IMG/VR virus record: IMGVR_UViG_3300029214_000123
From: a virus
Taxonomy: Duplodnaviria; Heunggongvirae; Uroviricota; Caudoviricetes
Strand: one strand, 5' to 3'
DNA length: 21,450 nt
Under the pieces are notes generated by a model, which saw only the letters and a list, made by a program, of their open reading frames with translations, was not told the origin of the DNA and made no database searches. Position numbers and translations under genes: made by a program. Of the stretch, positions 5,627 to 21,450 are shown piece after piece (positions within the stretch are counted from its first letter, which is position 1; the number at the start of each line of letters is the position of its first letter).

Positions 5627-6045
5627 TGCGCCACGTCCTGAAAATTACCCTGATAGAAAGCCAGTATGCGCTGCATAACTTCGCTCTTCCGGCACTCGCG
5701 ACAGATTATGTTTAGGCGACTGTCGTAGCGACGTATTTCTCCGTCAGGTGATGACCAGATAAGGTCCGGATCAACCACAGCAGGTTTCTTCACCTTTGCC
5801 CTCGAGAGTTTTTTGCGGGCGTTTTGCCAGTCCTTACGCGCCTGTTCAGAGGGGAATAACCCGTAGCCGGAGTTGTATACATCGCCACTGGCTACCAGCT
5901 CTCTGGCAAGAACGCTCATCAGATATCTAGTCGCACCTGTTTTAGCTTCCAGTTGCCGTAACGTCTCACGGCCGCTCTGGCGCACGAGTTCCACCACCTG
6001 CCATTTAATTTTTTCCCGCTCTTCTTGTGTAAAAACTTTTGCCAC
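5623..6045 (-). CDS. Hypothetical prophage protein (140 aa) in the leftward early/replication operon
   Basis: ORF co-oriented with and overlapping (ATGA-type) the downstream methyltransferase-like gene; basic C-terminus. Confidence 0.5.
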   Translation of the reverse strand: MAKVFTQEEREKIKWQVVELVRQSGRETLRQLEAKTGATRYLMSVLARELVASGDVYNSGYGLFPSEQARKDWQNARKKLSRAKVKKPAVVDPDLIWSSPDGEIRRYDSRLNIICRECRKSEVMQRILAFYQGNFQDVAQ

Positions 6046-9376: not shown

Positions 9377-9649
9377 ATGCGGCTAAGCGCACGCGGAACA
9401 GTTAAAACCAAAAACAGTGTTATGGGTGGATTCTCTGTATCCGAAGAGCAGTTAATTGCGCTGAAAGGAATAAAAAAAGGTACGTTAAAAAAGGCCCGGG
9501 AAAAATCGTTTATGGAAGGAAGGGAATATAAGCATGTCGCTCATGACGGTATGCCATGGGATAACAGTCCATGCTTTTACAACCTGGAAGAAATTGATCG
9601 CTGGATTGAGCGCCAGGCATCAGCAAGACCAAGACGTCATCTTACTTGA
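9377..9649 (+). CDS. Putative excisionase (lambda Xis-like); start codon uncertain
   Basis: ORF immediately upstream of int; segment EGREYKHVAHDGMPWD resembles the lambda Xis DGREYLFHESAVKVD region. No clear SD at any candidate start (9377, 9422, 9512). K-12 has dicB at this position, and no DicB-like protein is present here. Confidence 0.45.
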   Translation: MRLSARGTVKTKNSVMGGFSVSEEQLIALKGIKKGTLKKAREKSFMEGREYKHVAHDGMPWDNSPCFYNLEEIDRWIERQASARPRRHLT

Positions 9650-13929: not shown

Positions 13930-14063
13930 CTTTGTCACTTATTGACATCATGTATAGTTATAGGGCGACATAATATCATCAATATAAACACCCTCCTGGT
14001 ACGTTTTGCGTTCGCAGTGGATGGTGTAGAATCTCCTTTAATCATTCATACAGGGAATGAATT

Positions 14064-14405
14064 ATGAAAATCACTCTCAGCAAACGAATCGGCCTGCTCG
14101 CTTTTCTGCTGCCTTGCGCACTGGCACTGAGCACAACTGTTCATGCCGAAACTAACAAACTGGTGATTGAGTCTGGCGACAGTGCACAAAGCCGCCAGCA
14201 CGCCGCTATGGAAAAAGAGCAATGGAATGACACGCGCAATCTGCGTCAGAAAGTGAATAAACGCACTGAAAAAGAGTGGGATAAAGCCGACGCCGCTTTT
14301 GATAACCGCGATAAATGTGAGCAAAGCGCCAACATCAATGCCTACTGGGAGCCAAATACTTTGCGCTGCCTGGACCGTCGAACTGGCCGCGTTATTACCC
14401 CCTAA
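14064..14405 (+). CDS. ynfB: YnfB, UPF0482 family secreted protein
   Basis: 113-aa ORF with an N-terminal signal peptide ([28 protein letters not shown]). Confidence 0.9.
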
Positions 14406-14439
14406 CCTGTTATTGATTTAAGGAATGTAAGGACACGTT

Positions 14440-15000
14440 ATGCCAAGCGCCCACAGTGTTAAGCTACGCCCGCTGGAGCGTGAAGATTTACGCTATGTAC
14501 ATCAACTCGACAATAACGCCAGTGTGATGCGTTACTGGTTTGAGGAACCCTACGAAGCCTTTGTTGAACTCTCTGATCTGTATGATAAGCATATTCACGA
14601 TCAGAGCGAACGGCGCTTTGTGGTGGAATGTGACGGCGAAAAAGCCGGTCTGGTGGAGCTGGTGGAAATTAACCATGTACATCGCCGGGCAGAATTTCAG
14701 ATAATTATCTCCCCGGAGTATCAGGGGAAAGGTCTGGCAACCCGTGCCGCCAAATTAGCAATGGACTATGGCTTTACCGTTCTCAATCTCTATAAGCTGT
14801 ATCTGATCGTTGATAAAGAGAATGAAAAAGCGATTCACATTTACCGCAAGCTTGGCTTTTCGGTTGAAGGTGAATTGATGCACGAGTTCTTTATTAATGG
14901 TCAATATCGTAATGCCATTCGCATGTGTATATTCCAGCATCAGTATCTGGCAGAGCACAAAACACCGGGTCAGACTCTCCTGAAGCCGACCGCACAATAG
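14440..15000 (+). CDS. speG: Spermidine N1-acetyltransferase SpeG (GNAT family)
   Basis: 186-aa [44 protein letters not shown]... matches SpeG as I recall it. Confidence 0.95.
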
Positions 15001-15002
15001 CA

Positions 15003-15713
15003 TTAATAATAATCGATCGTATTTTTGATGGTGTAAACCCGTTCGACGGCGGGTTTTACTCCTTCATCAACAATGATTAGCTGACAGTCCACCGGATTAG
15101 CGTGACTGTCATATTCACAGCTCTGTTTTACATTACCAACCCGTTGATTATTCAGTAAAGTAACCGCTGTGTAATCTAATTTTTTGATCGGATCCGTTGA
15201 TGGCGTGGCGCTGACAGATAATGTTTTGTCGTTACTTTTCGTGGTTTTACCCAGCGGATAACCCTGATCATCATAGCGATATTCCATCTGCATTTGTTTG
15301 CTGCTGGCTTTAATCACGAAGCCATTATCATCGGTTTCCCAACTCACCCCGGCAGAAGGTAATTCTGCTAGCTGGCATTTTCCCTGTAAACGTACTCTCT
15401 TCTCCAGCGTCTCGGCATCACGGTAATAATTGGCGTCCAGTACCAGAGCGACCACGGTATTATTTTCCAGATCCAGTAATTCGAGTGAATCAAAACAGCC
15501 TTCTTCCGACAAAGTCCCAGAAACACGTTTCGTCACTTCACCTTGCTCATCCATTAATGTCTGAGTGAAATCTTTTACCGGACCACGCAGCGGATCAAAA
15601 TCGAATTCATTAGAGAAACTGGCCATCTCAGGGGTAAATGAAAGTGTTACCTCTGTGCGGTCACATCCTGTGAGGAATATCGCGAGTAAGCATGGTAGTA
15701 ATTTGTATTTCAC
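15003..15713 (-). CDS. ynfC: YnfC, UPF0257 family lipoprotein; GTG start
   Basis: Sequence from (V/M)KYKLLPCLLAIFLTGC (lipobox LTGC) matches YnfC as I recall it; that position is a GTG at 15713-15711, and the track ORF extends upstream to an ATG at 15749. Confidence 0.85.
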   Translation of the reverse strand: MKYKLLPCLLAIFLTGCDRTEVTLSFTPEMASFSNEFDFDPLRGPVKDFTQTLMDEQGEVTKRVSGTLSEEGCFDSLELLDLENNTVVALVLDANYYRDAETLEKRVRLQGKCQLAELPSAGVSWETDDNGFVIKASSKQMQMEYRYDDQGYPLGKTTKSNDKTLSVSATPSTDPIKKLDYTAVTLLNNQRVGNVKQSCEYDSHANPVDCQLIIVDEGVKPAVERVYTIKNTIDYY

Positions 15714-15820
15714 AACAGTCACCAGAGAGTAGAGATGATTCTCAATCATAGTAGCAAATACAGTACTTTACACGTTAAATGCTATGCTTAAAGAAGTTAT
15801 CTTCGCGTAAGGAGCTTATG

Positions 15821-16126
15821 ATGAAACTCTCAACCTGCTGTGCCGCGCTTCTGCTCGCCCTCGCCTCACCCGCGGTACTCGCCGCGCCGGGATCCTGTGA
15901 GCGCATACAGAGCGATATATCACAGCGCATTATCAATAATGGCGTACCCGAAAGCAGCTTCACGTTAAGTATTGTACCCAATGACCAGGTTGATCAGCCT
16001 GATTCCCAGGTCGTCGGGCATTGTGCTAATGATACGCATAAAATTCTCTACACCCGCACCACCAGCGGTAACGTCTCTGCTCCCGCGCAGTCTACCCAGG
16101 ATGGCGCGCCTGCCGAACCGCAGTAA
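15821..16126 (+). CDS. ynfD: YnfD, secreted DUF1161-like protein
   Basis: MKLSTCCAALLLALASPAVLA signal peptide; the ATG at 15821 is 6 nt after an aaggag SD (track ORF starts upstream at 15779). Confidence 0.85.
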   Translation: MKLSTCCAALLLALASPAVLAAPGSCERIQSDISQRIINNGVPESSFTLSIVPNDQVDQPDSQVVGHCANDTHKILYTRTTSGNVSAPAQSTQDGAPAEPQ

Positions 16127-16142
16127 TACATTATCGACTGAA

Positions 16143-16165
16143 CGCCGGATACGACACATCCGGCG
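16143..16165. repeat. REP-like GC-rich hairpin downstream of ynfD
   Basis: cgccggat-acgacac-atccggcg stem-loop resembling enterobacterial REP/PU elements; no T-run follows. Confidence 0.4.
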
Positions 16166-16324
16166 ATTTGAACATACAACATAATCCCACCTTATTACTC
16201 ATACCCTTCTATTGATATGGATTAATAATTCTTAACCCAAAATGGGTAGACTCCCTCTATTGTTAGCGCGCTAAATATTCAATATATAAACATTTATATA
16301 ACGATAAAGAACAGGGAGTGAGTT

Positions 16325-17734
16325 ATGTCCAAAAATGACCGAATGGTGGGCATCAGCCGCAGAACACTCGTTAAATCAACCGCGATAGGTTCTCTGGCGC
16401 TGGCTGCAGGCGGTTTTTCTTTACCGTTCACCCTGCGCAGTGCAGCGGCAGCGGTACAACAGGCCAGCGAAAAAGTGATCTGGGGTGCCTGTTCCGTCAA
16501 CTGTGGTAGCCGCTGTGCACTTCGTCTACATGTTAAAGATAATGAAGTCACCTGGGTGGAAACTGACAACACCGGCAGCGACGAGTATGGCAATCATCAA
16601 GTACGCGCCTGTTTGCGTGGTCGATCCATCCGCCGGCGTATTAATCATCCCGATCGCTTGAATTACCCAATGAAACGCGTGGGTACACGCGGTGAAGGCA
16701 AATTCGAACGGATTAGCTGGGATGAAGCCCTGGATACTATCGCCAGTAGCCTGAAAAAAACCGTCGAACAATATGGCAATGAGGCTGTATATATTCAGTA
16801 CTCTTCGGGGATTGTTGGCGGCAATATGACCCGCTCTTCGCCATCAGCCTCGGCGGTCAAACGCCTGATGAACTGCTACGGCGGTTCACTCAATCAGTAT
16901 GGCTCCTACAGCACCGCGCAAATTTCCTGTGCCATGCCCTACACCTACGGCAGTAATGATGGCAACAGCACCACGGATATTGAAAACAGCAAGCTGGTCG
17001 TGATGTTTGGTAACAACCCGGCAGAAACCCGCATGAGCGGCGGTGGCATCACTTATCTTCTTGAAAAAGCGCGCGAGAAATCGAACGCCAAAATGATTGT
17101 TATCGATCCGCGATATACCGATACGGCTGCCGGTCGTGAAGACGAATGGCTCCCTATTCGCCCGGGCACCGATGCCGCGCTGGTTGCGGGTATTGCCTGG
17201 GTATTGATTAACGAAAATCTCGTTGATCAACCTTTTCTCGATAAATACTGCGTCGGCTATGACGAAAAAACCTTACCCGCAGATGCACCCAAAAATGGTC
17301 ACTATAAAGCCTATATTCTTGGTGAAGGTGACGATAAAACAGCGAAAACGCCGCAGTGGGCTTCGCAAATTACCGGTATCCCGGAGGACCGTATCATCAA
17401 ACTGGCGCGTGAAATTGGCACAGCAAAACCCGCTTATATCTGCCAGGGCTGGGGGCCGCAACGCCAGGCAAACGGCGAACTGACTGCACGCGCTATTGCT
17501 ATGTTACCTATTTTGACGGGCAATGTCGGCATCAGCGGCGGAAATAGTGGCGCGCGTGAATCGACCTATACCATTACCATAGAACGCCTGCCGGTGCTGG
17601 ATAATCCGGTCAAAACGTCAATCTCCTGCTTCAGCTGGACAGATGCTATCGATCATGGTCCGCAAATGACGGCAATCCGCGACGGCGTCCGCGGCAAAGA
17701 TAAACTGGATGTGCCCATTAAGTTCATCTGGAAC
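16325..17734 (+). pseudogene. ynfE: ynfE 5' fragment (Tat-exported DMSO/selenate reductase-family molybdoenzyme catalytic subunit), cut after codon ~470 by foreign DNA
   Basis: Tat signal (SRRTLVKSTAIGSLALAAG), 4Fe-4S Cys motif (CSVNCGSRCALR), YnfE/DmsA-like sequence up to ...DVPIKFIWN. The remaining ORF tail (FKDLKRTLSRPEVLH, stop at 17782) does not continue as YnfE/DmsA, and the full protein should be roughly 800 aa. Confidence 0.85.
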
Positions 17735-17790
17735 TTCAAGGACTTGAAGCGGACCCTTAGTAGGCCTGAGGTCCTGCATTGAGTCAAGGA

Positions 17791-17824
17791 CTTTGTGTCA
17801 GGCTTTGTGTCAGCCTTGTGTCAT
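17791..17824. repeat. Three tandem copies of an ~11-bp repeat (ctttgtgtcag variants) in the foreign-segment terminal region
   Basis: ctttgtgtcagg / ctttgtgtcagc / cttgtgtcat in direct tandem; followed by a tagacgg ... tagacgg direct repeat (17825-17844). Confidence 0.6.
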
Positions 17825-17976
17825 TAGACGGGATGTCTAGACGGCTGGTCAGGACCCCCGGTGGCCTCGGTCTGGACTTGAGGCGGGGCTATGGGGGGAA
17901 GTCTGCTGGCTTAATGTATTAGATGGTCATTCACATTTTTCTGTCAGAAACCATCGGTCCCACTGTGAGTCCAAAC

Positions 17977-18132
17977 CTAAGGACCTAGAAGTCCACCCAC
18001 AGCCTTAGACAGAGTGTCGAACACATCCACACCGAGTCGACCAGAGAGGACCATATAGAGACCCACAGAGAGGAACACGAGTTTATAGACCAGAGTCAGG
18101 AGGGACCTTAGGTCTGCGGAAGTCATAGACAT
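17977..18132 (-). CDS. Small (51 aa) membrane protein, holin-like or phage small membrane protein; missed by the ORF track (<60 aa)
   Basis: Hand translation MSMTSADLRSLLTLVYKLVFLSVGLYMVLSGRLGVDVFDTLSKAVGGLLGP; strong SD GAAGGAGG 5 nt upstream of the ATG at 18132; one predicted TM helix; same strand as the neighbouring phage-like genes. Confidence 0.55.
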   Translation of the reverse strand: MSMTSADLRSLLTLVYKLVFLSVGLYMVLSGRLGVDVFDTLSKAVGGLLGP

Positions 18133-18276
18133 TGGGTCCTCCTTCGCCTGTATACTACCATACCAGTAATAAGGCCCAGACCATTGGTCCAGACCATAGT
18201 TAGTTAATCACAGTGATAGCCCACCACCTGAAGTCCTGCTGATATTCAGTCCAGACTTACCTCTTACCCATTGGTC

Positions 18277-19266
18277 TTACGCTTCGGTCTTGGTGAACTT
18301 CAGGCGTTTGACTACAGGCAGGACGGCAGTAGCTGAGCCAGTGCCCATCTTGACGGTCGTAGCAGCTTCAGCGACAACGAACACTTTACCGAGGATTTCC
18401 AGAGAGTGAGACTGAGAGTCACCATCACGGGACAGGACCACCGTAATGTTTTCGCCATCGTGGCGGAAGCAACCGAAGCTCAGAGCCGTAAAACGCTTAG
18501 CCATCATGAACACGCCACGGTCTTCACCGTTGTAATACGCAATATCAGTCCCCAGCATATCGACGATAGCGTCTTCACCACCGAAGCCCTGCTTAGCAGC
18601 CAGACGGGAGAGAGCCTTGAGGTGTGACTCATGGGCGATGATACCGTAATCAGTAACCTCAGAACCGAAAGAAGATTCGGTGTTGTCATACAGAGCGTCC
18701 ATGATAGTGTCTGCCTTAGCGGTCAGGCTGCCAGTCAGGACCGGAAGCTCTACGGTCTTCAACAGTTTGGAGGACTCCAGAACGTCAACCATGCGAGCGT
18801 TGATGGTACGGACCACATTCTCACAGATGTTCATAGCGTCCTGCTGAAGTGTGCCCTGAGTGAATCCGGTGGATGACTTGGCGTCCCAGAGCTTGGTCTG
18901 CTCAGAGATGAGAATAGCCTGCTCGATTGGTTCGACCACGATTTCTTGTCCAGACGGAACGGTCACGACTTCAGGTCGCTTACCACCACGGACAGGAACG
19001 ACCACAGAGCGATCAGCCAGAGTGTGAGCAATGATTGGAGTAGGCAGGCTATTGCGGGTCGGCAGGACTTCTACAGGGAACGGGATGTTATCTTGAGCGT
19101 CTTTAAGTACACCGTTCAGCATAGCCTTAACAGTCTTAGCTAACTGGAGGGCATAGACCTGAGGGTCGGCGTTAGTCGGAAGGCCCTCATTAACCTGAAG
19201 GTTGTCGTTGTCGGTGATATGAACAGGCTCAATGCCAAACTGGAAAGCGTTTTTAGTCATATTCAT
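18277..19266 (-). CDS. Phage-like abundant structural protein, tentatively a major capsid protein (329 aa)
   Basis: Long ORF with strongly biased high-expression codon usage (CTG, GGT, CGT, GCT, ATC, GAC). Translation initiation region CAAGGAGATTAATTATA-ATG resembles the T7 gene 10 RBS (AAGGAGATATACAT-ATG). 9-bp hairpin immediately upstream. Few Cys, Ala/Val/Thr/Gly-rich. The capsid assignment is inference, not a recognised homolog. Confidence 0.45.
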   Translation of the reverse strand: MNMTKNAFQFGIEPVHITDNDNLQVNEGLPTNADPQVYALQLAKTVKAMLNGVLKDAQDNIPFPVEVLPTRNSLPTPIIAHTLADRSVVVPVRGGKRPEVVTVPSGQEIVVEPIEQAILISEQTKLWDAKSSTGFTQGTLQQDAMNICENVVRTINARMVDVLESSKLLKTVELPVLTGSLTAKADTIMDALYDNTESSFGSEVTDYGIIAHESHLKALSRLAAKQGFGGEDAIVDMLGTDIAYYNGEDRGVFMMAKRFTALSFGCFRHDGENITVVLSRDGDSQSHSLEILGKVFVVAEAATTVKMGTGSATAVLPVVKRLKFTKTEA

Positions 19267-19298
19267 TATAATTAATCTCCTTGAGTCAAATACTTGAA

Positions 19299-19321
19299 GT
19301 CCCTAACAGGCAGTCAGGGAC
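19299..19321 (-). promoter_or_regulatory. Stable RNA hairpin in the leader of the capsid-like gene (candidate RNase III / mRNA-stability element)
   Basis: On the minus strand GUCCCUGAC-UGCCU-GUUAGGGAC: 9-bp stem with one G-U pair; no U-tract after it, so it is unlikely to be an intrinsic terminator. Confidence 0.4.
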
Positions 19322-19349
19322 CGTGTGTTCTCAGATGAGGGACGCTTGC

Positions 19350-19841
19350 TTACAGGCTGTCCATCCAGTTACCGCCTGACTCAATGTCAGCGACGATAGC
19401 GGCACGGGAGCGACCAGCGGAATGGGTAGCACTGCGGAGGTTCTCACCATAGGTCCGGCGTTCAGCTTTGACCTGTTCGCGGCGCTGTAGCTCTTTCTGC
19501 CACTCTGCATCAGTCATGTTCTCTTCACGCATACGCTCAGCCTGAATGCGCTGCTCTTTAGCAATACGCTCAGCTTCGGCTCGCTTGTTCTGCTGGCGGC
19601 GACCATAGGCGGTCATCAGGTCATTACTGAAGAAGTTGCCAATGGTCACGCCAGCTTCAGCCAGAGCTTCCAGTAACTCCATCGCCTCGCGGCTGGTGGA
19701 CGGTAAGCCTGACAGGTAGCCCGGAATCAGGGTCTTAATCGCCAGAGACAGCGGATAGGACTGACCGTCCAGACTCACAGTATTTTCATAGGGATTGATG
19801 TCGGTGACTGATAGTTTCCAGTCGTTGTTGTTGAATAACAT
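19350..19841 (-). CDS. Phage-like protein (163 aa) with a charged coiled-coil C-terminal half, scaffolding-like
   Basis: ORF with SD AGGAGTACTACCTT-ATG; C-terminal half RRQQNKRAEAERIAKEQRIQAERMREENMTDAEWQKELQRREQVKAERR is Arg/Glu/Gln-rich helical; immediately precedes the capsid-like gene. The scaffold role is inference. Confidence 0.4.
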   Translation of the reverse strand: MLFNNNDWKLSVTDINPYENTVSLDGQSYPLSLAIKTLIPGYLSGLPSTSREAMELLEALAEAGVTIGNFFSNDLMTAYGRRQQNKRAEAERIAKEQRIQAERMREENMTDAEWQKELQRREQVKAERRTYGENLRSATHSAGRSRAAIVADIESGGNWMDSL

Positions 19842-20055
19842 AAGGTAGTACTCCTATTGAGAAGGTGAGAACTATCGGTATCGCAGACACAGTTATGCCT
19901 ACGGGTCTCCCCGCATCGGTCATTCTCAAAAGGTTTTAAAATTAGGTATTAAGTAGGTGAGCTGCTAACGGTTAGGCGCTAGCTTGCTAGCTGACGGCAG
20001 TTTCATAGCGACCAGTTGCGCTATCAGCTCGTCTCGGGATTGGTGCTGGCGGGTC

Positions 20056-20157
20056 TCATCTTNNNNNNNNNNGACCAAGCTCTCTGAGGAGGACTTCAGT
20101 CCGGTAGCCACGGTAACGGAGAGTCATGCGACCCTCAGGTGTGCGCGGGTCAATCAT
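20056..20157 (-). CDS. Possible small basic protein (~33 aa) translationally coupled to the upstream 237-aa gene; spans an N-run
   Basis: ATG at 20157-20155 is preceded by GGAGGG (8 nt upstream) lying in the last codons of the upstream gene; translation MIDPRTPEGRMTLRYRGYRTEVLLRELG... The length depends on the true size of the 10-N gap. Confidence 0.2.
   Translation of the reverse strand: MIDPRTPEGRMTLRYRGYRTEVLLRELGXXXXR
20063..20072. other. Run of 10 N inside the foreign segment
   Basis: Literal n characters. Confidence 1.
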
Positions 20158-20158
20158 C

Positions 20159-20872
20159 TTAGAGTCCCTCCAGCTTGCCGGATTGGGCCTGCTTCAGGAG
20201 GTGCTCTTGCTTCTGCTGGTCGGTGCCAGTGAAGGCAATAAGGATGCCTCGCATCTTGTCAACCATCTCAGGCTTACCGAAGACCTCCAGTCCCTTAGCA
20301 TTGAACCGGAAGTTATAACCACCTGCTGAGAACTTCTGGTCTGACGGCTTAATGATACGAAAGCAGTCGGAATACTTCGGATTTACAGACCACTCGTTAC
20401 TGATTGGATTCTTACGAAAGAGACCACGATGCTGAAGAAGTGCGGTCATTAGCTTCTGAGCGGGTAGACCATAGGTTTTGCAGTAGTCGCCCCAAGTCAC
20501 GCCTCGACGGTTAGCGGACTGAATTGATGCTCGCTTCTTCTGGTCTTCCAGTAACTGCTTGTCCTTCTCAATTCGTCGGATGTATTCAAGGACTTTGCGA
20601 CGCACAGCTTTAGACTCACGCATACCGACTAGTAACAATTGGTCTCCGGTCAGCGTGATTGATTCCATCTGACGACCACCGCCTGTAGGTGTAATCAGAA
20701 CGGTCGCAAAAGTTTTGCAATCGTCCAGCTCATCGCGGACACGGGCTAAGAATTGGTCATTACGGACCGGAGCCTCGCCAGCTTCTGAACGAGCAGGATT
20801 GATAACAGTCGTCAGAAACTCATAGGAAGGCATAGAGAATTCATTGTTAAAGATGACTACTTGTTGAGACAT
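20159..20872 (-). CDS. Phage-like protein of unknown function (237 aa); possibly regulatory/antirepressor-like (weak)
   Basis: Long ORF with SD AAAAGGAGTACAACGAT-ATG, the same AGGAGTAC-type initiation region as the 163-aa gene; codon usage like the neighbouring genes. The segment ESITLTGDQLLLVGMRESKAVRRKVLEYI vaguely recalls Rha/antirepressor-type proteins, which I cannot verify. Confidence 0.5.
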   Translation of the reverse strand: MSQQVVIFNNEFSMPSYEFLTTVINPARSEAGEAPVRNDQFLARVRDELDDCKTFATVLITPTGGGRQMESITLTGDQLLLVGMRESKAVRRKVLEYIRRIEKDKQLLEDQKKRASIQSANRRGVTWGDYCKTYGLPAQKLMTALLQHRGLFRKNPISNEWSVNPKYSDCFRIIKPSDQKFSAGGYNFRFNAKGLEVFGKPEMVDKMRGILIAFTGTDQQKQEHLLKQAQSGKLEGL

Positions 20873-21450
20873 ATCGTTGTACTCCTTTTGTTATGTCTCC
20901 TGAAGTCACACCCTGAAAGCCTACTCAAGCCCCCAACGATAGGGAGACTCACAGGCAACAGGAGACATACAGAAAGACTTGAGGATTGATGAGGTCGTGT
21001 GAAGACCAGAGATGACCATAGCGGCTAATAAAAGGAAATTTTCCTCTTTTGAGGACTGCTCAGTTTTGAGCGCGTTAAGTTCTTCGACCATAGAGACGAA
21101 GGTTGCAGGCCGCATGTCAGGACGAGCTGTAAGGACCCCAGATGGTGAGCGGTGATAGACTTAAGCCAATGTAGTGAGTAGACGAGCTACTAACTGAGAT
21201 GACTGAAGAACGCTAACGAGCTGGAGGTCGATACACGAGGTCTGACAGGGGCGGTCTTCCTACCAGTGATAGTTAAGTCTCTACACTGGTCATACATACC
21301 CAACCTCAAGCAACGACCCAATGTATACAGGGTCCCGATGCTTTGAGCTGGAGACTGACGGAGCTATCGTCGACCCCATGGTTGAGGAAGACACATAGAA
21401 GGAATGAGGTCTGACTTAAGTCTGGACTATAGGTCTTATATTAATCTTCA

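Follow-up and report, generated by a model that had tools for sequence, protein, structure and literature searches.

The 21,450-nt stretch of DNA analysed here (positions 1-21450 of the virus record IMGVR_UViG_3300029214_000123, hereafter the window) ends in foreign DNA that interrupts the Escherichia coli gene ynfE. We examined this foreign part (positions 17735-21450) and found that it belongs to a complete and compact integrated element of 6.5 kb with its own integrase, rather than being a piece of the late region of a phage. The window holds the left 3.7 kb of the island, which has a total length of 6,472 bp. We think it most likely that the island is a satellite of T7-like virulent phages (Studiervirinae), the E. 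coli copies having promoters of the Kayfunavirus type. Elements of this family measure 5-7 kb and are found across the Enterobacteriaceae. A satellite is the simplest reading because the island has no genes for polymerases, portal, terminase or tail, yet retains its integrase and capsid gene, together with promoters specific to the helper, which are all directed at the capsid gene, and a copy of a helper genome end that is conserved.

A complete element integrated in ynfE

Upstream of the junction, the window shows the usual E. coli gene order: ynfB, speG, ynfC, ynfD and ynfE, the last of which starts at 16325. The preliminary description of this DNA, made from the sequence alone, had proposed that ynfE is recognizable until ...IKFIWN and shows no continuity afterwards. 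The comparison with ynfE of strain K-12 bears this out: the frame breaks exactly after position 17734, at codon 470 of 808. In genomes with the same insertion this 5' part is annotated as a truncated dimethyl sulfoxide (DMSO)/selenate reductase A subunit. There is no step in GC content at the junction (0.52 on each side). The sequence CATCTGGAAC is found at attL, at attR and in the uninterrupted ynfE of K-12, where the empty site reads AAGTTCATCTGGAACTACGCG. The predicted attP junction is ...TTGACTCAATG...GTTCCAGATGGACTCC.... A survey with TIGER (PMC7192596) had already placed ynfE among the genes split by integrative elements.

At least 31 complete E. coli genomes, which come from a range of countries and hosts, have the region 16300-21450 as one contiguous stretch at 92-96% identity. 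In E. coli WP4-S18-ESBL-08 (locus L001 of our collection), 6,650 bp of foreign DNA separate the two halves of ynfE, with HNH endonuclease and integrase (int) genes at the far end. Positions 14000-21450 of the window have a counterpart at 99.8% identity in a public metagenome contig (L034), and the mismatches are mostly the N positions. This contig extends beyond the window with a further 2.7 kb of the element (HNH, int), attR and the remaining part of ynfE. The segment had been described as running off the window; L034 supplies its other boundary and gives the length of the complete element of the window copy.

These data also decide on the possibility, raised in the preliminary description, that ynfE was joined to unrelated phage DNA during assembly. 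The N run in the window and the extension of the foreign segment past the window end spoke for such a chimera. We regard it as refuted, and give it next to no probability, since the identical junction is present in the closed genomes and in other genera, both att ends carry the target-site repeat, and L034 continues into the missing half of ynfE at the opposite end. The N run itself lies inside a gene that is otherwise colinear with its relatives. The evidence favours the other option named in that description, an integrated element or phage satellite.

At the attR side of L001 (28060-28085), the island provides ATGGAGTCC, which is in frame and immediately precedes the att core (...MESIWNYAGN...). 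A C-terminal fragment could therefore be translated on its own from the 3' part of ynfE. The paralogue of ynfE, ynfF, lies directly downstream.

Promoters of T7-like phages in the island family

We built a promoter weight matrix from the 11 annotated promoters of phage EcoDS1, which score 29-35 bits against their own matrix. We then counted sites of at least 25 bits at most 5.2 kb upstream of the capsid gene in the 54 loci of the family with enough upstream sequence. At least one site was found in 51 of the 54 loci, and all sites (69/69) are oriented as the capsid gene. Outside the elements there are only 3 sites in 376 kb. The best sites of the elements score 31-35 bits on the gene strand, against at most 13 bits in the host flanks. 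Relatives of the window copy have two or three sites of 31-35 bits, and their non-coding region contains sequences such as ACTAAACTATCACTATAGGGGAG.

These sites correspond to promoters of sequenced phages. A 32-mer from one element matches 217 phage genomes at 6-10 places each. Nearly all of these are T7-like phages of about 40 kb that infect E. coli, Salmonella, Citrobacter or Enterobacter, including Kayfunavirus, and the matching places are annotated as 'promoter' in EcoDS1 and CR44b. Another lineage carries another type. A relative inserted in ynfE, with a capsid protein 42% identical to that of the window, has the sequence TTTAAGGAAGGTACACTATAGGGAGAGACA, in which 30 nt agree exactly with phi10, a promoter of Citrobacter phage CR8. 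This phage (genus Caroctavirus) has 11 promoters with the consensus AAGGAAGGTACACTATAGG. The promoter type changes with the lineage of the element and with the likely helper genus (Kayfunavirus or Caroctavirus).

In the window copy, the site at 21256-21278 has the same base as the EcoDS1 phiOR promoter and its flanks at 26 of 30 positions, with an altered initiation region; relatives have a perfect promoter at this position. Once the copy is completed with L034 and L001, a site of 31.6 bits is found beyond the window, between int and HNH, and one of 23.0 bits after HNH. The A+T-rich stretch that starts at 21420 lies about 85 nt downstream of the 23-bit site. The primary origin of T7 has this layout, a promoter followed by an AT-rich region. 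By analogy, the stretch is a candidate replication origin of the T7 type. We also considered a promoter at 21420-21445 (TAATATAAGACCTATAG on the gene strand, GACTATAGG on the opposite one), and rejected it: the sequence is palindromic, has a low matrix score and matches no phage.

No sigma-70-like promoter was found in 17700-21450 on either strand, while shuffled sequences give 2.8 ± 1.8. This sequence pattern suggests that host promoters are avoided in the structural operon.

Two further observations concern more distant copies. In L014 (a contig of GCA_052218625.1 with a capsid protein 33% identical), two or three promoters of the type TAAACCCCGACTATAGAGAG are located around 5760-5800 and 9590-9620. 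No deposited phage matched this type, a result that suggests a T7-like helper not yet sampled. In L004 (14216-14238) and L005 (11531-11553, minus strand), a second promoter-like site (AAACCCACACTATAGGGG / AAACCCTCACTATAGGGG) resembles the promoters of T3 and T7 and lies about 30 nt upstream of a promoter of the Kayfunavirus type. Such tandem promoters of two specificities might allow one island to use two helper genera.

A look-alike of the helper genome end next to attL

The stretch 17869-17956, between the 51-aa gene and attL, resembles a genome end of EcoDS1. The aligned region of the phage covers its last unique bases and the first bases of its terminal repeat, which starts at 39075; the physical left end reads TCTCACAGT.... 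In packaged island DNA, ends would be expected at or near position 17905 of the window (TCTAATACA...). The similarity has a z-score of 12 against shuffled sequences in the window copy. In L004, a copy inserted at a tRNA-Gly gene, z is 19 and blastn against the phage genome gives E = 7e-7. EcoDS1, CR8 and five copies of the element share the pattern GAcGATGrGTTTT…AAAArTkTGA…CATCTmAyA…CCCCATAGsCC…AGTCcAGACC. Across some 50-80 loci, the median conservation of the stretch is 96.6%, compared with 89.4% for the capsid gene.

The integrase gene of the ynfE-type copies contains, 61 nt from its start, the motif GGGTCTCCCTATCTGTAT (about 27940-27960 in L001; also in L003, L007, L008 and L029), which resembles the concatemer junction of EcoDS1, GAGTCTCTATCTGTATAACC. 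After excision the motif would sit about 325 bp downstream of the genome-end copy, with a terminal repeat across attP. It is absent from the integrases of tRNA-Gly-type copies, and the coding constraint (SPYLY) could explain it.

A capsid protein recognized by its fold

Neither the 329-aa protein nor its distant relatives received a capsid annotation in sequence searches of Pfam, PHROGs and the PDB. An exhaustive profile search retrieved 66 relatives, about 30 of them full-length and at 20-42% identity, none of which is annotated; one distant relative has a C-terminal Ig-like domain. An AlphaFold2 prediction based on close homologues only had a predicted local distance difference test score (pLDDT) of 35. 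When distant relatives were added (39 homologues), the model reached a pLDDT of 83 and a predicted template modelling score (pTM) of 0.77. With this model, Foldseek returned 210 matches in the PDB and 200 among viral proteins at E ≤ 1e-3. The best 50 of each list are capsid proteins of the HK97 fold, encapsulins or unnamed phage proteins, with a Foldseek probability of 1.0 and best E-values of 7e-10 (PDB) and 1.3e-10 (viral proteins). The matches include the capsid proteins of phi29, T5, Kp9, HRP29, PhiM1 and T7 (3j7w). The predicted structure thus supports the 329-aa protein being a capsid protein of the HK97 fold. No sequence similarity was detectable between this protein and gp10 of the phages with the same promoters.

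Gene content of the element

Every credible gene in 17735-21450 is on the minus strand, tightly packed with its neighbours and preceded by AAGGAG or AGGAG 6-10 nt 5' of the ATG. The preliminary description had noted this switch of strand, the packing and the ribosome-binding sites, and we could read the same in the sequence. Its capsid-like gene now has the backing of a predicted structure (pLDDT 83, and the best 50 Foldseek matches). The 51-aa membrane protein that it had added exists as an open reading frame (ORF) with one hydrophobic helix and is kept in relatives. The repeat-rich non-coding DNA is real, and consists of probable arm-type repeats for the integrase, the copy of the phage genome end and the phage-promoter-like sites. 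The description had also called the segment a module of a virulent rather than a lambdoid phage, typical of a late region. The promoters of the T7 group, a homologue of gp7.3 in relatives and the T7-like genome end agree with the first part of this claim. The second part does not hold, as the segment is not a fragment of a late region.

The homologue of gp7.3, a small virion protein of EcoDS1, is encoded after the capsid gene. In L001 it is an intact gene of 79 aa (21907-22146), 38% identical to EcoDS1 gp7.3 (E = 2e-12 against the EcoDS1 proteome), and it matches phrog_1320. It is also intact in L029. In the window, L007 and L008 it has suffered a deletion between short GGTAAG repeats, which indicates that the gene is dispensable or decaying in many copies.

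Beyond the window, the element encodes an HNH endonuclease (HNH_3) that resembles homing endonucleases and occupies a cargo slot downstream of the strong phage promoter. The tyrosine integrase follows (528 aa in L001, PF00589 at 1.6e-13). The ORF list and the Pfam and PHROG scans of the 6.5-kb element revealed no portal, protease or scaffold, head-tail connector, terminase, tail, RNA polymerase, DNA polymerase or primase. The same scans of all ORFs gave no AlpA or primase-replicase, typical of phage-inducible chromosomal islands (PICIs), and no Psu, Delta, Sid or Alpha, typical of P4. The gene content indicates that the element is unable to make a virion or to replicate alone.

The element has no counterpart among deposited phages. 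Megablast searches with the segment, distant blastn searches with both non-coding regions and tblastn searches with the 329-, 163- and 79-aa proteins gave nothing meaningful. No deposited phage thus contains the element as a segment. No Rfam family matched.

A family with a constant gene order and variable cargo

The pair formed by the capsid and 163-aa genes is present in 310 of 5,426 complete E. coli genomes, always on the chromosome, with one or two copies per genome, and is retained in relatives whose capsid proteins are 33-42% identical. The islands are inserted in ynfE, in a tRNA-Gly gene next to the ETT2 secretion island and, in one metagenome contig, at a third site. The genes keep one order. 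Int is followed by a single cargo gene that varies, by 0.7-0.9 kb of non-coding DNA and by a regulator-like gene that also varies; then come the 163-aa and 329-aa genes, small ORFs and att. This order is kept in relatives where the 329-aa protein is 42% or 33% identical. Shigella flexneri, Leclercia, Citrobacter, Buttiauxella and Enterobacter have close copies, whose capsid proteins are 80-95% identical, and members of the 163-aa family are also found in Salmonella, Yersinia, Serratia, Kluyvera and Photorhabdus. The copy of Leclercia lies in its own ynfE. Its core is 89% identical to that of the window, whereas the flanking host genes are 73.5% identical, which indicates transfer between genera.

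Several metagenomes contain the island as a separate contig of about 6.5 kb with around 55 nt of ynfE or tRNA-Gly on each side. This suggests that occupied and empty alleles coexist in one sample (gut or food). The contigs L044, L047, L050, L054, L071 and others span the whole island with ynfE flanks of this length. Many copies carry insertion sequences (IS) of the IS3, IS21, IS66 and IS100 families (for example L003, L004, L006 and L009), often near the non-coding and regulator region.

The cargo slot links the family to anti-phage defence. In tRNA-Gly-type copies, the gene of PD-T7-4, a DUF4145/HEPN zinc-finger protein, overlaps the 3' end of int (E = 1e-102; 14235-14894 in L004, 11549-12208 in L005 and 1765-2418 in L028). 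The window copy does not have this gene and has the HNH endonuclease in its place. Vassallo et al. (PMC9519451) recovered PD-T7-4 when selecting for T7 resistance, and observed that it 'often overlaps an integrase gene'. It has been renamed RAZR and shown to be an RNase that becomes active when it assembles around the portal rings of T7 and T3, in a study that nowhere mentions an integrase, a satellite or a mobile element (PMC13017515).

Other features of the window

The features located in the window are collected in Table 1. Two more copies of the CTTTGTGTCAG-type repeat are found near attR and inside the 5' end of int, and the distant relative L014 has the same type of repeat in the same place. 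In its position, the 51-aa gene corresponds to gp19.5, which in T7-like phages is the last gene ahead of the terminal repeat. The correspondence does not go beyond position, as there is no sequence similarity with gp19.5 of EcoDS1. The hairpin that follows the capsid gene has a folding energy of -16.2 kcal/mol (z = -2.9), and in EcoDS1 a terminator is annotated just after gene 10. The matches of the 163-aa protein to T7 gp14 are weak (Pfam E = 0.011; E = 0.002 for EcoDS1 gp14 in a search of 53 proteins), as are its others (DUF6971, coiled-coil). Our guess is that it could be a scaffold or an internal protein. The apparent frameshift of the 63-aa ORF results from 10 N (20064-20073) that replace 9 real bases, and the ORF is intact in L001 and L034. 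The slot of the 237-aa gene is variable. The Ant-like module is found in only about 9 of 80 loci, and relatives have Rha, KilA-N or small ORFs there. The leader that precedes the operon contains a weak look-alike, AAGTCTTTCTGTATG, of the concatemer-junction motif of the helper, seen by eye only.

Table 1. Location of the features of the integrated element and of its ynfE flank in the window.
Feature	Positions	Strand	Basis or remark
5' part of ynfE, codons 1-470	16325-17734	+	matches K-12 ynfE up to the attB core
attL core CATCTGGAAC, direct repeat at both ends of the element	17725-17734		10 nt (some copies have as many as 16 nt)
Three tandem CTTTGTGTCAG-type repeats, probable arm-type integrase sites	17791-17824		read from the sequence; putative function
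Look-alike of the helper genome end, candidate packaging/terminase recognition site	17869-17956	-	aligned with EcoDS1 39042-39128
51-aa single-pass membrane protein	17977-18132	-	AAGGAG site; conserved in relatives
Hairpin (10 bp) with U-rich tail, candidate terminator or processing site	18173-18195	-	downstream of the capsid gene; terminator-like match; putative function
Remnant of gp7.3-like gene	18208-18271	-	176-nt internal deletion (alignment)
329-aa major capsid protein, predicted HK97 fold	18277-19266	-	AlphaFold2 and Foldseek
163-aa protein, charged helical C-terminal half	19350-19841	-	always directly upstream of the capsid gene
63-aa ORF	19965-20157	-	interrupted in the window by the N run
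237-aa Ant-like (KilAC-type) protein	20159-20872	-	phrog_10324 'anti-repressor Ant' at 1.8e-31; weak Pfam ANT match
Conserved leader before the first operon gene, long hairpin	20880-20995	-	conserved across element types; -39.5 kcal/mol, z = -2.7
Degenerate copy of the helper phiOR promoter, ACTTAACTATCACTGGTAGGAAG	21256-21278	-	17.6 bits, against at most 11.3 elsewhere in the window
Block similar to the left end of EcoDS1 (413-448), ACCATGGGGnCGACGATAGCTC	21356-21391	-	blastn 80.6% over 36 nt, E = 0.002 against EcoDS1; Smith-Waterman z = 7.6
Start of a stretch of 70-80% A+T, candidate T7-type replication origin	21420-21450	-	continues past the window (L001, L034)

Discussion

Elements of this family appear made to be switched on by virulent T7-like phages, which most probably also mobilize them, and we propose the following life cycle. 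The tyrosine integrase has inserted the island at the 10-bp site in ynfE. In an uninfected cell the structural operon would be silent, as we propose from the lack of sigma-70-like promoters. When a matching T7-like phage infects the cell, its single-subunit RNA polymerase would read the promoters of the island, located in the gap between int and HNH and in the non-coding region, and transcription would proceed in one direction through the HNH, Ant-like, 63-aa, 163-aa, capsid and 51-aa genes. The island would excise by means of int, and the replication machinery of the helper would probably copy it from the promoter and the AT-rich origin. The terminase of the helper would recognize the DNA of the island through the genome-end copy next to attL. 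Packaging would take place in capsids made of the island's own HK97-fold protein, presumably small, built on the portal of the helper and completed with its tails. The cargo slot next to int would carry genes against phages, HNH in this copy and RAZR (PD-T7-4) in relatives. We infer induction, excision, replication, packaging, capsid size and transfer, as well as the roles of the 163-, 237-, 63- and 51-aa proteins.

A more ambitious version of this scheme is one on which we are evenly divided. In this version, T7-like virulent coliphages would have in these islands their first natural satellite system, with a design unlike that of any characterized satellite. The islands would be silent until the RNA polymerase of the helper reads helper-specific promoters, copied and packaged through copies of the origin and of the genome end of the helper, and enclosed in their own, probably miniature, single-protein capsid on a stolen portal, and they would be the natural vehicle of RAZR, a defence that senses portals. 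Swapping of promoters between lineages of islands would then be the way in which they change helper genus.

Several observations weigh against a satellite. The only promoter-like site inside the window (17.6 bits) is below the range of real promoters (29-35 bits), and so is the other of the two sites nearest to the structural genes (23.0 bits). With sites this weak, the capsid operon would have to be expressed by read-through from the only fully convincing promoter of this copy, the 31.6-bit site upstream of HNH. Neither variant site has a match among deposited phages. The genome-end similarity is short (about 90 nt at 64-68% identity), went undetected in a database-wide search and was seen only by targeted comparison. 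A right-hand boundary of the terminal repeat is not found consistently across copies, the motif being present only in ynfE-type int. In public contigs we found no circular or attP-containing form and no virome-derived copy: every contig of about 6.5 kb that we examined is an integrated copy. We looked for excised circles among the contigs of 6.2-6.9 kb, and rejected them all because their ends do not overlap and each end has some 55 nt of ynfE or tRNA-Gly. The matches in IMG/VR are chromosomal segments. Many copies are interrupted by IS and the window copy has lost the gp7.3-like gene, so that some copies may be decaying. A capsid gene unaccompanied by portal, protease and small terminase genes has no characterized precedent, and the capsid protein might serve interference rather than transfer. 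Finally, RAZR kills upon sensing portals of the T7 type, which is awkward for an element that depends on such a portal, unless the true helpers escape.

The main rival reading is an island that defends its host when triggered by a phage and is not itself transduced. The RNA polymerase of the invader would switch on genes that abort or sabotage the infection: the capsid-fold and 163-aa proteins would poison head assembly, the genome-end copy would be a decoy for the terminase, and HNH or RAZR would destroy nucleic acids. The island would spread by other routes, for example generalized transduction or recombination. We consider this unlikely. It is consistent with the presence of a validated anti-T7 abortive-infection gene in the cargo slot of relatives and of a homing-endonuclease-like HNH in the window copy, with the lack of packaged or circular forms in public contigs, and with the lack of portal and terminase genes. 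Yet the integrase is complete, and it is conserved across the family together with the att sites and arm repeats. The core is far more alike between genera than the host backbone, and the same att site is used in different genera, which argues for efficient self-transfer. A full-length capsid gene conserved in hundreds of genomes also exceeds what a decoy seems to need. It is important to highlight that the two readings are not exclusive: P4, PICIs and the PICI-like elements (PLE) of Vibrio combine defence and transfer.

The other readings concern the origin of the element and the nature of its capsid. The island could be what is left (int, a few late genes and some promoters) of a decayed temperate T7-like prophage that once had an integrase. 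T7-like phages with an integrase do exist, LUZ100 and marine T7-like cyanophages among them, and many copies carry IS elements. We nevertheless regard a remnant as quite improbable, because the same compact order in 5-7 kb is found in hundreds of genomes, down to 33% capsid identity, with intact ORFs, no fragments of other T7 genes and a capsid protein that has no detectable similarity to gp10 of the phages sharing its promoters. Encapsulins are among the best fold matches, and the HK97-fold protein could thus be a metabolic shell, instead of a virus head, encoded in a nanocompartment operon on a mobile island. This seems very improbable, given that there is no cargo enzyme, that the neighbours are of phage type (Ant-like and gp7.3-like genes, T7 promoters and the genome-end copy) and that one distant member has a C-terminal Ig-like domain, as do many phage capsid proteins. 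A satellite of T7-like phages remains our preferred reading.

The class of islands is not new. It was first noticed in 2006, is not known to have been explained since and has been neglected; this copy is one more member. The islands of Chen and Schneider reportedly number 12, measure 4-13 kb, have a tyrosine integrase upstream of two or three promoters and direct repeats at their ends, and lack an RNA polymerase gene. The element of the window has its integrase upstream of the promoters, CATCTGGAAC at both ends and no polymerase gene among its ORFs. The title of the 2006 article describes enterobacterial islands with tandem T7-like promoters (Chen & Schneider 2006, Nucleic Acids Res 34:1133, PMC1380254). 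Going by this title, the likeness lies in clustered promoters of the T7 group (31.6, 23.0 and 17.6 bits in the completed copy). As far as can be checked, the present analysis adds the fold of the capsid protein, the homologue of gp7.3 and the copy of the genome end. It also adds the assignment of promoter types to named phage genera, the connection with RAZR, and figures for prevalence and host range. Full-text searches of the literature found no satellite of T7-like, Autographiviridae or Kayfunavirus phages.

Among known satellites, the capsid-forming PICIs (cf-PICIs) are alike in being integrated elements that encode their own HK97-type capsid protein, instead of remodelling that of the helper, and use helper tails. 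They have about 10-15 kb and also encode portal, protease or scaffold, head-tail connectors, small terminase, AlpA and a primase-replicase, and their helpers are temperate. In contrast, all these additional genes are missing from the element of the window, for which we presume virulent helpers and dependence on a phage RNA polymerase. The element does not contain the defining gene sets of PICI, cf-PICI or P4. The PICMIs (minimalist chromosomal islands inducible by phages), satellites of virulent vibriophages, resemble it in very small size, minimal gene content and virulent helpers. PICMIs are described as having no capsid-remodelling genes and as being packaged as concatemers in helper capsids (PMC10803314). 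The element of the window, in contrast, has a capsid gene and promoters of the helper type. The PLE of Vibrio cholerae, with the virulent helper ICP1, are similar in combining parasitism with defence, including nucleases directed against the helper. However, PLE have about 18 kb, remodel the coat of the helper, encode their own replication initiator, do not rely on a phage RNA polymerase and show no homology with the element. Finally, plasmids with a T7 origin (promoter and AT-rich DNA) and a concatemer junction were, in work by Chung and Hinkle in 1990, reportedly replicated and packaged by T7. The island appears to hold natural versions of both kinds of sites. Those plasmids were artificial and were packaged as long concatemers in full-size T7 heads, whereas the island has, in addition, its integrase, its capsid gene and its cargo.

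No virulent phages have been studied better than T7 and its relatives, which are also frequent candidates for phage therapy. If the islands are their satellites, then about 6% of the complete genomes of E. coli contain such satellites, as do Shigella, Citrobacter, Enterobacter and, when the 163-aa family is counted, Salmonella. Therapeutic T7-like phages could give lower yields in their presence, and DNA could be carried by them from one genus to another. The satellites would represent a new logic of hijacking, in which expression is gated by the RNA polymerase of the helper and packaging proceeds through a copy of the genome end of the helper. They would also give a natural context to RAZR, which was studied without its mobile element. 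With 6.5 kb and a single capsid gene, they would rank with the smallest known systems specifying a capsid, and might be useful to study capsid size or as a chassis for delivery. The analysis also ties a bioinformatic observation made in 2006 to the present biology of satellites and defence.

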